Assembly: GCA_039795225.1 (NCBI GenBank)
Contig: JBDKEN010000001.1
Span: forward strand, 21,610-85,609
DNA length: 64,000 nt
Direction of reading: 5' to 3'
DNA from: Bacteroidota bacterium
GTDB lineage: Bacteria > Bacteroidota > Ignavibacteria > Kapaibacteriales > Kapaibacteriaceae
The notes beneath the pieces are model-generated. The model made no database searches. It worked only from the letters and a program-made list of their open reading frames with translations, and had not been told where the DNA came from. This document shows, piece after piece, positions 59,680 to 64,000 of the stretch. The translations under genes were made by a program, and so were the position numbers. Every line of letters starts with the position of its first letter. Positions within the stretch are counted from its first letter, which is position 1.

Positions 59680-62600
59680 TTAGTTGTTGTGAGTGATCTC
59701 AACCCACTTCTGCAGCGATGAGATGTAGACGAACATGATCAGACCGTTTGTATTGAGCGTCCGACTTGCGATGAACAGCTCAAGCTGATTATCAGTAGCT
59801 GAACGGCCATCATTGCTGTAGAACTTGAGCTGCTTACCAGAGCCGTTGAACACAATGAGTAAGCGTCCGTCCGATCCTCCATCAAAGCCCGTCACGTCCG
59901 TCTGCGCCGTTGCATTGATGAATCGAATCAGACCTGCCTCAGGAATGATGAGGTCATTCAGCTCATTCAACACGTTTTGAACTAAGGCGACATCGATAAC
60001 GGTGCCTTCCCGCAGGTACACGCCGGTAGGCAGTTCACCCTTTTTCGTATTTGTCCACTTCTGCGTTGTGTCGTTCCAGGTCAATACGTCCTGATTCGCC
60101 AGCGTCATTGTCGAATCAATAGGCTTTGTCTGAATCTTCTGAACGACAGGGTTCGGATATGTTCCTTTAAGGTCTCCTCCGGCGGAACCGGTTGGAGAAC
60201 TTGATGACGGGGCTACCGGCTCCCATGAGCTGGTTGTGCTACTCCAGGTCAGCACATTACCCGAAGCAGGCGCAGCTGTCGACACTGTGCGTCCTTGGAT
60301 CTTATTGACAGTCGGATTTGGATACGTGCCCGAAAGATCACCTCCAGCCGATCCACCTGGGGTCGTCCCCGATATCGTAACGTTCGATACATTCGTCAGA
60401 CGTCCATCAGAATCCACCGTGAGCTGAGGAACTTGTGTCGTTGTTCCATACGTACCACCGACGACCGATGTTGAAGCAAGCTCTGATGACCCCACGGCGT
60501 CGGCTGTGATCTGCAGGTTCATCGTATTGATGTTGCCACTGACTGTTACGTCTGTTCCGGCAGCAGTTGCCGGCACGATGGTGAGGTTTGTAGCCGAGCT
60601 CAACCGTCCCTTCGCATCGACGGAAAACTGCGGTACTGCGCTCGTGGTACCATACGTGCCGGAACTGACACCGGTTGTTGTGAGGCTCGGATTCGGATAG
60701 GTTCCCGTAAGATCGCCACCGGCTGGGCCTGATGGAGCAGCACCAGAGATCGTGACGTTGCTTGCACTGGTGATACGTCCATCGGCGTCTACAGTAAACT
60801 GTGCAACCTGCGTGGACGTACCGTAGCTACCAGCCGAGACCGACGTTGATTGCAGTTCGGTCGAGCCAACCACATCCGATCCCAGTTGAAGATTCATCGT
60901 GTTGATGTTACCACTGACGGTTACATCGGTTCCCGCTGCTGTAGCTGGAACAATGGTGACATTTGTTGCACTCGTGAGTCGCCCCTTGGCGTCAACAGAA
61001 ACCTGTGCAACCTGGTGATCACTTCCATACGTAGCAGCCGTCACTCCCGTCAACGTGAGAGTTGGATTTGGATACGTACCGGTAAGATCACCACCGGCAG
61101 CGCCCCCAGGGATCGTGCCAGAGATCGTCACGTTACTGACATTCGTGAGGCGACCATCCGCATCGACTGTGAGCTGCGGGACTTGCGTGGTGGAACCGTA
61201 CATGCCACTCACGACTGCTGTTGATGCCAATTCTGCCGAGCCGACGACATCGGTGCCCAACTGCAAGTTCATACTGTTGATGTTCCCGCTTACGGAGACA
61301 TCGGTTCCAGCGGCAGTAACCGGCACGATGGTGACATTCGTCGCTGAGCTTACCCGTCCCTTCGCATCGACGGATATCTGCGGCACAACGCTCGTTGTTC
61401 CATACGTGCCGGCACTGACGCCGGTCGTGGTCAGACTCGGGTTGGGATAGGTTCCCGTGAGATCTCCCCCTGCGGGACCGGAGGGGGCAATACCAGAAAT
61501 GCTGACGTTGCTCGCATTGGTGATACGACCATCGGTATCAACCGTAAACTGTGCTACCTGTGTAGCCGTACCGTAGGTGCCAGCAGATACTGTCGTCGAG
61601 GCAAGCTCAGGTGCACCGACAACGCTGCTGCCTAATTGCAGATTCATTGTGTTGACATTCCCTGTGACGGTAACATCGGTTCCCGCTGCCGTCGAGGGAA
61701 CGATCGTGACGTTGGTTGCATTTGTTAAACGGCCCTTCGCATCAACAGTGATCTGCGCAACCTGGTGATCGCTACCGTACGTTGCCGCTGCAACGCCTGT
61801 TGTCGTCAACGTCGGATTTGGATATGTGCCGGTGAGATCACCACCCGCTGCGCCGCCCGGTGTTGTGCCAGAGATCGTCACGTTCGTGACGTTAGTCAAC
61901 CGACCATCAGCATCGACGCTCAGCTGTGCGACCTGCGTTGTGGTACCATAGGTACCGCTGGTAACAGCCGTAGGTGCCAGCTCTGTTGGACCGACAACAT
62001 CGGCACCAAGCTGCAGGTTCATCGTATTGATATTACCGGATACCGTAACATCTGTGCCAGCAGCCGTCGTGGGCACAATTGTCAAATTGCTCGCTGCGGT
62101 AAGACGCCCCTTAGCGTCGACGGTAAACTGCGGTACTGCGCTTGTTGAACCGTACGATCCGGCACTCACTCCTGTTGTAATCAATGTTGGATTTGGATAC
62201 GTGCCGGTGAGATCACCGCCTGCTGCGCCACCCGGAGTCGTACCGGTGATCGTCACATTCGTAACGTTCGTGAGTCGACCATCAGCATCGACCGTAAGCT
62301 GGGGAATTTGGGTGGCTGATCCATACGTGCCGAGGGTAACGCCGGATGATGATAGTTCGGATGCACCGACCGTGTTCGCACCAATCTGTAGATTCATGGT
62401 GTTGATGTTCCCGGTCACACTAACATCCGAAGAGCCACTCGTTGCCGGTACAATTGTCAGATTTGATGCCGCAAGAACGCGTCCCTTAGCATCAACGGTA
62501 AACTGCGGTACTGCCGAGGTTGTACCGTATTGATCTGCGACAACCCCTGTTGCAATGAGTGATGGACTTGGGTAGGTGCCCGTAAGATCACCACCGGCAG

Positions 62601-64000
62601 CTCCTCCCGGAGTTGTACCCGATATCGTCACATTCTGTGCTGAAGTTAGACGTCCATCAGCATCGACGGTGAACTGCCCTACCTGCGTGGCTGTACCATA
62701 GGTTCCCGAGCTTACCGCAGTCGGCGCGAGCTCTGTAGGACCGACCACTGCTGTGGCGAGCTGAATGTTCATTGTATTGATGTTTCCCGTCACGGTAGCG
62801 TCTGAGCCTGCAGCTGTGACAGGCACGATTGTCACATTGGTGGCATTGGAGAGTCGACCCTTTGCATCAACAGTAAACTGTCCAACCTGACTATTGCTGC
62901 CATATGTGCCCGATGCAATGCCCGTTGTCGTGAGCGTCGGATTTGGATACGTTCCAGTGAGGTCACCCCCGGCCGACCCTCCCGGCGTGGTGCCGGCTAT
63001 GGTAATGTTCTGTGCTGTGGTGATGCGTCCGTCCTGATCAATCGTGATCTGCGGGACCTGCGTCGTCGTGCCGTAGGTGGCTGCTGATACACCGGTCGAG
63101 GCAAGCTCCTGCGAGCCCACGACATTGGGTCCGATCTGCAGATTCATCGTATTGATCGTGCCGGAAATCGTCACATCAGATGTTAACGAGCTTACGGGTT
63201 GGATCATGACATCGGCTGCCGACAACACCCGCCCCTTCGCATCAATCGTCACCTGTGCAACATGACTCGATGAACCATAGGTGCCGGACATCACGCCGGT
63301 GGTGGTGAGCGACGGATTCGGATAGGTACCAGTAAGATCTCCACCAGCTGCACCTCCGGGAGTAGTTCCTGTAATAGTTGTTGATGTAAGTGCGGTAACT
63401 CGACCATCGTTGTCGATAGTCACGATCGGTACAATCGAGGATGATCCAACGGGGCCAATCGAAGTGGCATGAAGATCAGCCAACTCTGTCGAGCCGACGC
63501 GGCCAGTCTTGATCTGTAGATCCATTGAGTCGAGGTGGCCGGTTACAGTTACGTCAGAAGCGGTAACTGTGCCCGGATGCTCCAGCTTGGACGCATCGAT
63601 TACCTGCATGGATGATGAATTATTGATCGCATTGATAATCGAGGGTCCTGCTGCTGCGATGTTGATCGTCGGATTTGGATATGTTCCAGTCAGATCTCCA
63701 CCGGCTGGCCCTCCGGGAGTCGTTCCAGAGATTGTCACATTCGCCGCCGCGGTAAGTCGTCCATCGGCATCAACAGTAATCTGCGGTACCTGTGTGGTTG
63801 TTCCGTAGGAACCTGCAGCAACCGACGTTGAGGCGAGCTCGTTGGCACTCACCACTGCGGTTCCGAGCTGGAGATTCATGGTGTTGATGTTTCCGGTAAC
63901 GTTGACGTCCGTGCCGGTGGTCACTCCGGGAACAATTGTCACATTGGTCGCAGATGTGAGACGTCCCTTTGCGTCAACGGTGAACTGGCCGACCTGACTC
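59680..64000 (-). CDS. Giant tandem-repeat fibre/adhesin-like protein, C-terminal ~1,440 aa; N-terminus lies right of the window
   Basis: The listed GTG at 63942 is an internal Val. The frame stays open to 64000 and reads [19 protein letters not shown], continuing the repeat. Ten 125-aa repeats plus a 209-aa non-repeat C-terminus. TAA stop at 59680-59682. Confidence 0.85.
   Translation of the reverse strand, partial: [1439 protein letters not shown]
60310..64000 (-). repeat. 375-bp (125-aa) in-frame tandem repeats inside the giant gene, about 10 copies in the window, with a 750-bp higher-order repeat
   Basis: TTCATCGT of the NTMNLQ block recurs at 60518 and 60893 (375 bp apart). CCTGGTGATC recurs at 61011 and 61761 (750 bp apart). 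The protein shows 10 G(N/T)(I/V)N(T/S)MNLQ-type blocks. Confidence 0.9.

Follow-up and report, generated by a model that had tools for sequence, protein, structure and literature searches.

At one end of the 64,000-nt window analysed here (the whole stretch of DNA, contig C5 positions 21610–85609) lies the greater part of a giant repeat-containing gene on the minus strand, whose product we call the fibre. The window belongs to a metagenome-assembled genome (MAG) of the Kapabacteria lineage (Bacteroidota in GTDB terms), which spans 1.83 Mb in six contigs, has a G+C content of 54% and is about 70% complete. The fibre is probably a Sec-exported adhesin of the cell surface that resembles the mosaic adhesive trimer (MAT) proteins, being of their non-S74 type, and its gene probably belongs to the chromosome and not to a prophage. 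MAT fibres were described in 2024 as a prey-recognition repertoire of Bdellovibrio, and the family in Bdellovibrio bacteriovorus is split into S74 and non-S74 members, the latter including Bd2133 and Bd1334 (Caulton et al. 2024, PMC10769870).

The initial annotation, made from the window alone, had proposed a single open frame running past the window, and the genome bears this out. The stop codon lies at window positions 59680–59682, the frame runs on beyond the last position of the window, and the whole gene covers window-equivalent positions 59680–66252 (contig C5 81289–87861), with an ATG start at 66252 and an intact frame of 2,190 aa. The N-terminus (MRRLALVLGCLLVLAIVAPAQT/SIPR) is a typical Sec signal peptide; an early cysteine is not conserved among orthologues, which argues for cleavage by signal peptidase I and against a lipoprotein. 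The mature protein, of 218 kDa with an isoelectric point of 4.4, lacks cysteine and has a high content of Thr, Gly, Val, Ser and Ala. The same annotation had compared the protein with phage-tail-fibre-like or collagen-like surface proteins. The first comparison is supported by the signal peptide, the modular shaft, a tip fold of the phage fibre and spike type and an N-terminal domain shared with proteins that end in the S74 domain; the second falls away, as the translated fibre contains no Gly-X-Y runs. The reported lack of a C-terminal domain (CTD) of the type IX secretion system (T9SS) also stands, with no match to TIGR04183 or PF18962 at E ≤ 1. Relatives of the fibre are annotated in their sources as 'hypothetical' or mislabelled 'starvation-inducible outer membrane lipoprotein'. 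Pfam matches of the fibre to DUF2760 and Cu-oxidase_3 were rejected as noise from repeat composition, neither having a significant single stretch.

Base, tip and paralogues of the fibre

The N-terminal domain comprises about 100 residues (aa 23 to ~122) followed by a helix, and AlphaFold2 (AF2) predicts it to be a β-sandwich with a predicted local distance difference test score (pLDDT) of around 90. Across NCBIfam, the whole fibre has one match, NF053851 Bdello_MAT_N ('mosaic adhesive trimer family chimeric fiber protein'), at E = 5e-7. In the genome, seven proteins carry the domain, and five of them match positions 3–76 of the same model at 19–24 bits; none of 14 control genomes has a match. 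A Foldseek search of the Protein Data Bank (PDB) with the predicted domain gave nothing significant (best E = 0.045, generic Ig-like sandwiches only); the N-terminal domain of the MAT proteins is likewise reported to lack a PDB neighbour (PMC10769870). On the strength of the profile matches, we read the two N-terminal domains as remote homologues, short of proven membership of the fibre in the MAT family. Further, ten relatives that share the N-terminal domain end in PF13884 (Peptidase_S74), the S74 intramolecular chaperone of trimeric phage fibres, a parallel to the division of the Bdellovibrio family into S74 and non-S74 members. A Pfam scan did not find PF13884 in the fibre itself, which would therefore be of the non-S74 type.

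At the other end of the protein, the 209-aa C-terminus described earlier as non-repeat does begin at V1982 (window 59683–60309), but its first ~100 residues are two copies of a module, and only the last ~110 are globular (Table 1). Most of 3,199 representative matches fall on the V.KIQG module part. The predicted fold of the tip finds its PDB neighbours by Foldseek among phage structures, including the Pa223 capsid spike (9ny6), the N-terminal region of CBA120 TSP4 (7rfo), 6o38 and T4 gp10 (2fl8). It superposes on a baseplate protein of Klebsiella phage KP1 (9f4b_FA) with a root-mean-square deviation (rmsd) of 3.8 Å over 111 columns and, in BFVD, on many fibre proteins of uncultured phages, such as A0A6J5R1R1 (rmsd 2.4 Å over 112 columns, E = 7e-9). 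Since the tip is the only part modelled well, TM-scores calculated over all 346 residues of the query are low. Other fibres end in the same tip, among them the 1,278-aa paralogue on contig C6.

The genome contains seven genes with the N-terminal domain, encoding proteins of 2,190, 4,872, 684, 348, 2,462, 444 and 1,278 aa, all with a signal peptide. Their N-terminal domains are 29–42% identical, they have at least four unrelated C-terminal ends, and they are built from a common kit of modules (GGDL motif, YG hairpin and GAVTxxKIxD runs). We propose from these sequences that the set, with its constant base and differing shafts and tips, may be a repertoire of putative binding specificities. Of 201 genomes sampled from the phylum, 66 (in 45 of 109 genera) gave a match to a profile of the N-terminal domain, with as many as 13 copies in a single genome. 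The family is thus widespread, and it is almost unannotated.

Individual paralogues have features of their own. The 4,872-aa protein (C3 249438–264056, plus strand; L014:4438–19056) has three GGDL motifs only, a different C-terminus and no Pfam match. Near it, the 684-aa paralogue (C3 246477–248531, plus strand; L014:1477–3531) has a His-rich stretch in its tip (GGGHSHPIQDPGHSHTWTHG ... GDHAHE) that suggests a metal site. The short fibres of 348 and 444 aa (C3 68194–71306 and C1 39137–43102, both minus strand) have a third type of tip (...SWMVINL or ...SWMVLNL). Each is followed by two genes of ~300–390 aa whose products start with ...LPIETQELKIQG..., lack the N-terminal domain and share the end ...YTG.VNY.VI..Q.

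Table 1. Features of the fibre gene and its two downstream neighbours, in window coordinates.
Feature	Position	Strand	Evidence or remark
Fibre gene, 3′ two-thirds (aa 752–2190 and stop)	59680..64000	−	Open reading frame; signal peptide and N-terminal domain beyond window end
C-terminal tip, compact β-sandwich (aa 2081–2190)	59683..60012	−	AF2 pLDDT 85–95; Foldseek matches to phage fibre, spike and baseplate proteins
Two copies of V.KIQG..V..P..G.VLTW....W.P module and second 11-residue motif (aa 1982–2080)	60013..60309	−	Most of 3,199 representative matches; alignment
Eight canonical 125-aa (375-bp) units, 7–14 (aa 970–1969), GGDL register	60346..63345	−	Motif spacing; unit alignment
Units 13–14, younger copy of two-unit (750-bp) duplication	60346..61095	−	84% aa and 74.5% nt identity to units 11–12; sister pairs in tree
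Units 11–12, other copy of two-unit duplication	61096..61845	−	Identity to units 13–14; unit tree
Unit 6, variant 119-aa module with IINAINNSS...IDASK insert, and part of unit 5	63346..64000	−	Positionally orthologous across relatives
Partner, 307 aa: signal peptide, 49-aa head motif, cohesin-like middle domain, T9SS type A CTD-like end	58739..59662	−	17 nt downstream of fibre stop
Outer-membrane β-barrel, 270 aa	57917..58729	−	PF13568 OMP_b-brl_2, E = 1.7e-8; 9 nt downstream of partner

Shaft repeats and their evolution

Between base and tip there are 16 copies of the motif GGDLxGxYPxP, at intervals of 117, 126, 118, 119, 125, 119, eight times 125, and 55 aa. These define a shaft of 14 modules of 117–126 aa, eight of which are canonical 125-aa units. 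The earlier count of at least ten 125-aa units in the window is close to what we find: eight canonical units, a variant of 119 aa and the greater part of one more 125-aa unit. The internal duplication reported for each unit is confirmed as two hairpin cores of the form YG..T.V.Q.TVD..GR....N.TI, with 24 D..GR sites listed.

Alternation of two unit types, with a 750-bp higher-order period, had been described for the array as a whole, and this pattern is present in the last four units only. Unit 11 is 85% identical to unit 13 in protein, and unit 12 is 84% identical to unit 14, against 70–74% for neighbouring units; the 11/13 and 12/14 pairs come out as sisters, with SH-aLRT support of 95 and 88, in a tree that covers 58 units and five orthologues. 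The string CCTGGTGATC does stand at both 61011 and 61761, as given in the initial annotation. The 750-bp repeat is nevertheless not exact, since the two-unit blocks are only 74.5% identical in DNA and represent one old duplication. Nor are there the long near-identical DNA repeats that had been assumed: all pairs of units are 58–75% identical in nucleotides (59–85% in protein), and over the 6.6 kb of the gene no exact repeat is longer than 21 bp. The output of Tandem Repeats Finder contains a single array, of 2.3 copies with 74% matches.

Among codons that keep the same amino acid between units, around 55% differ, and synonymous sites are near saturation. A comparison of the gene with its orthologue in another species gives similar figures (70–74% nucleotide identity, with 53–59% of conserved-residue codons changed). 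The two copies of the two-unit block have thus drifted as far apart as the gene and that orthologue, and we conclude that the repeats are old and maintained by purifying selection on the protein.

The divergence of the units also bears on the possibility that the number of repeats, or the whole long frame, is an artefact of assembly. The genome is a MAG, and in a related MAG (L022) the array is interrupted by a run of N. With units that differ at 25% or more of their bases and no exact repeat beyond 21 bp, reads and k-mers can be placed uniquely and collapse of the array is unlikely; independent assemblies, moreover, show the same architecture with intact frames. We therefore give an artefact of assembly almost no weight.

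A search with the N-terminal 240 residues of the fibre found orthologues that are 53–84% identical to it and 2,065, 2,066, 1,441, 1,690, 1,667 and 1,910 aa long, and the orthologue in a further genome is also 2,065 aa. One partial relative bears the NCBI name Candidatus Kapabacteria bacterium (MAG). A search for related loci with the fibre protein alone returned two close orthologues only. The first six modules (117, 126, 118, 119, 125 and 119 aa) are common to all orthologues. They are followed by 7, 7, 2 or 4 canonical units or, in two more distant orthologues, by 3 or 4 copies of a 125 + 116-aa double unit. Across orthologues at the chromosomal locus typA ... recR, the canonical units number 2, 4, 7, 7 and 8, so shaft length varies between lineages. 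In the unit tree, the proximal modules are positionally orthologous and the distal units have duplicated within lineages.

Duplication has been recent in two relatives. L020 has an exact repeat of 149 bp at a lag of 723 bp, and L021 has one of 92 bp at a lag of 375 bp. The L020 orthologue (L020:6001–11733) has a higher-order unit of 241 aa (723 bp) in which 125- and 116-aa modules alternate, with windows 88–97% identical in DNA. This identity, together with the 149-bp exact repeat, indicates that its duplications are recent, unlike those of the gene in our window. The array is thus dynamic in the family, though quiescent in this genome. The gene had been called a likely hotspot for length variation and assembly error; the variation holds at an evolutionary scale, as the unit counts of the orthologues show, and the assembly error does not apply to this genome with its diverged repeats. 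Two of the orthologues, in L021 and L022 (86% identical), come from MAGs labelled 'Patescibacteria group bacterium' and 'uncultured Melioribacter sp.', labels that fit the Kapabacteria-like gene and its neighbourhood poorly. The run of N within the L022 array represents masking or a scaffold gap.

Searches of PDB sequences with the whole protein and with a 14-unit profile gave nothing usable for the shaft repeat. Their sole match, the PLL2 lectin, was rejected as a chance similarity of the form 'G.T..P...DGR'. The whole fibre has no match to the Pfam family DUF5907 (PF19264); when units were scanned singly, only unit 1 (aa 246–362) matched it, at E = 1.8e-5. Among the PHROG families, phrog_36881 matches 21 stretches of the fibre (E = 1e-96) and phrog_28023 matches at E = 9e-26, both families being of unknown function.

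These PHROG matches and the fold of the tip could point to a tail fibre of a prophage, a tailocin or another phage-derived particle. The surroundings of the gene argue otherwise. In two orthologous contigs from independent metagenomes, the gene order is kept: an OEP-family gene, two unknown genes, typA/bipA, two small genes, the fibre gene, a ~300-aa gene, an OMP_b-brl_2 barrel gene, an unknown gene, a methyltransferase gene, recR, pspA and an ompA-like gene. Such conserved synteny among housekeeping genes (typA, recR, methyltransferase and OmpA-like) indicates a chromosomal locus and not a prophage. A Sec signal peptide and seven scattered paralogues are also difficult to reconcile with a virion protein, and a tblastn search with two units against 50,697 phage records found two cyanophages only (two accessions each), at E of ~1e-3. 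An origin in a phage particle is accordingly most improbable.

The T9SS-tagged partner and the β-barrel

Directly downstream of the fibre gene, on the same strand, follow a gene for a small secreted protein, which we call the partner, and one for an outer-membrane β-barrel (Table 1). The initial annotation, which looked for a T9SS CTD in the fibre, overlooked the CTD-like end encoded by this adjoining gene. The partner aligns to positions 3–71 of the 72 positions of TIGR04183, at 16.3 bits, which is below the cut-off of 23. Its head has the motif ..ISNGG....GS.GQPVIG......QGFW.

Several lines of evidence link such partners to the fibre genes. First, the order of fibre, partner and barrel recurs at the C6 and C2 paralogue loci, where the partners are 24–31% identical and their CTDs score 19 bits. 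All three of these loci thus combine a barrel with a partner of ~300 aa that has the additional cohesin-like domain. The same order is found at the orthologous loci L019 and L020, and L023 is alike, with the fibre frame truncated at the contig end. Two paralogues on C3 are each preceded by a 185-aa protein composed of the head motif and a CTD that scores above the cut-off (31.6 and 35.6 bits), and the gene for a 257-aa CTD protein lies upstream of the C1 paralogue. Thus, six of the seven fibres adjoin a small T9SS-tagged protein, and three of these loci also have a β-barrel gene. For the 4,872-aa paralogue described above, the 185-aa protein directly preceding it lies at C3 248881–249438; a 185-aa CTD partner likewise precedes the 684-aa paralogue.

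Second, we ran a profile of the 49 head positions against the same 200 genomes of the phylum and judged adjacency by eye against the matches of the fibre domain and L023. Outside this genome, the profile gave 21 matches in 11 genomes. For 19 of the 21, a fibre gene is no more than ~2.5 kb away, and most of these matches abut it, on its upstream or downstream side. We estimate that chance would produce well under one such adjacency, given that genomes of 2.2–5.3 Mb with no more than 13 fibre genes have only ~1–3% of their length in range. The two matches away from fibre genes are in G191:C8 and G137:C2, and the latter is still followed by a barrel gene. The counts include kin, which are not independent, and the criterion was set after this genome had been seen; we therefore take the adjacency as strong evidence of neighbourhood and not of mechanism.

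The partner and the barrel can exist as a pair alone. Locus L024 (G137:C2:251500–269000) carries a 300-aa partner homologue (1758–2660, minus strand) and a 585-aa barrel protein with no fibre gene nearby, and peptidase-like and AraC-like genes lie upstream. The partner's cohesin-like middle domain also occurs in two large T9SS-CTD proteins of this genome, of 1,588 aa (C5 118286–123052, minus strand; window-equivalent ~96677–101443, outside the window) and 1,662 aa (C6 907533–912521, minus strand), each followed by an OMP_b-brl_2 barrel gene. Cargo with a CTD and a barrel of its own thus looks like a general arrangement in this genome. That large CTD proteins with the same middle domain are also followed by barrels suggests that the partner is held by the barrel, in the way that SprF-type barrels accompany SprB-type cargo.

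Searches of this genome for TIGR04189 (SprA) and TIGR03519 (PorP/SprF) gave no match, with no positive control for either model, and PF14349 (SprA_N, a domain of the T9SS translocon) was therefore applied to relatives instead. It is present in all four complete relatives, including one of the same genus, and absent from this 70%-complete genome.

These results bear on a further alternative, in which the protein is a periplasmic or outer-membrane-associated structural component that is never exposed at the surface. It would account for a fibre that has only a Sec signal peptide, with no T9SS CTD or outer-membrane export signal of its own, in an incomplete genome in which T9SS core genes were not found. 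A fibre of 60–85 nm with a phage-type binding tip would, however, make little sense in the periplasm, and its tight linkage to a T9SS-tagged partner and a barrel, with SprA present in the relatives, argues for the outside of the cell. We consider a purely periplasmic location very unlikely.

Beyond the barrel gene and convergent to it lies a gene for a 197-aa secreted or lipoprotein-like product of unknown family (window 57289–57882, plus strand), which is kept in L019 (199 aa) and L020 (194 aa).

The proposed fibre and its relation to known systems

Several observations weigh against a MAT-like surface fibre. The match to Bdello_MAT_N scores 29.7 bits, against a curated cut-off of 60, and is confined to positions 3–75 of the 162 in the model. 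The single-chain AF2 model of the shaft has a pLDDT of 30–45, too low to be informative, and no solved structure or Pfam family covers the canonical 125-aa unit, unit 1 alone reaching DUF5907. Finally, core genes of the T9SS were not found in this 70%-complete genome.

The principal competing account is a monomeric repeat adhesin or a protein of the surface-layer type, akin to SprB, Bap and other giant β-rich repeat proteins, in place of an intertwined trimer. It draws on a shaft repeat that belongs to no structural family and on the missing S74 chaperone domain. Yet the N-terminal domain is common to fibres that end in S74 and are hence of the trimeric type, the fold of the tip resembles domains of trimeric phage fibres and spikes, and a low-confidence single-chain model is usual for obligate intertwined fibres. 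A monomeric adhesin is on balance unlikely.

For the MAT-like fibre, we propose the following architecture. The conserved ~100-aa N-terminal β-sandwich with its short helix would form the cell-proximal base. The shaft would consist of old, diverged β-hairpin modules in units of 117–126 aa, combining GGDLxGxYPNP linkers with YG..T.V.Q.TVD..GR hairpins. The ~110-aa sandwich at the C-terminus would bind a ligand on another surface, probably a glycan or a surface structure of other cells or particles. By comparison with the MAT family, the fibre is probably formed by three intertwined chains, and scaling from MAT crystal fragments (0.28–0.38 Å per residue) predicts a length of ~60–85 nm. The number of 125-aa units would set the length and reach of the shaft, changed by duplications of single units and unit pairs and by losses in related lineages. 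The fibre, partner and barrel genes are probably co-transcribed and, on the evidence of gene neighbourhood, the partner and barrel may mount the fibre on the outer membrane.

As a speculative route by which a fibre lacking a tag might reach the surface and stay there, its base may dock on the 49-residue head of the partner, with the ~300-aa partner held in turn by the barrel, giving a two- or three-component, T9SS-dependent 'piggyback' display. A literature search found no paper on the pairing of such a fibre with a T9SS-tagged partner or on such a display system.

Similar to the Bdellovibrio MAT proteins, the fibre has a signal peptide, an N-terminal domain without a PDB neighbour (invariant in MAT), a long β-rich shaft and an independently folding variable tip; both occur as many chromosomal paralogues with swapped tips, and both have relatives that end in S74. 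The differences are also clear. The fibre comes from another phylum, in a lineage with no known predatory lifestyle; its N-terminal match stays below the threshold; its length is about double; its shaft is a regular 125-aa repeat outside any Pfam model; its tip fold is none of the six solved MAT tips; and its gene adjoins those for a T9SS-tagged partner and a barrel. With fibre, tailspike and baseplate domains of phages, it shares the predicted fold of the tip and the logic of base, shaft and tip, whereas sequence identity is 13–20% and the fibre is Sec-exported and encoded among housekeeping genes. With DUF5907 and PHROG families 36881 and 28023, it shares the module of GGDLxGxYPxP and YG hairpin; the C2 and C6 paralogues match DUF5907 at E = 2e-19 and 1e-20 (70–74 bits, passing the threshold), whereas the canonical 125-aa units of the fibre do not reach the model and unit 1 alone does.

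For SprB and SprF of Flavobacterium, as for other T9SS cargo, a cognate barrel of the PorP/SprF type is encoded next door. The present locus is similar in that a gene for a long repetitive surface filament is followed by one for an outer-membrane barrel. It differs in that the fibre has no CTD, the barrel matches PF13568 and not the PorP/SprF model, and a small CTD protein is encoded between the two.

As a single gene, the fibre is a solid and unsurprising member of a widespread, poorly annotated family. What sets it apart from the described MAT family is the other phylum, an uncharacterised 125-aa shaft unit and the cassette of T9SS partner and barrel. The MAT-like design would thereby be present as a multi-gene repertoire in a Kapabacteria-like lineage of free-living bacteria, and it is found commonly elsewhere in the phylum. 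Shaft length appears to be tuned by gain and loss of whole 125-aa units, and repeats can persist for long with strongly diverged DNA. How the constant base of MAT fibres is held on the cell has been stated to be unknown (PMC10769870). The consistent T9SS-tagged neighbour, here with a barrel, is a concrete candidate for this missing anchor or export route; if true, the piggyback arrangement would name the surface anchor of MAT-type fibres in Bacteroidota.

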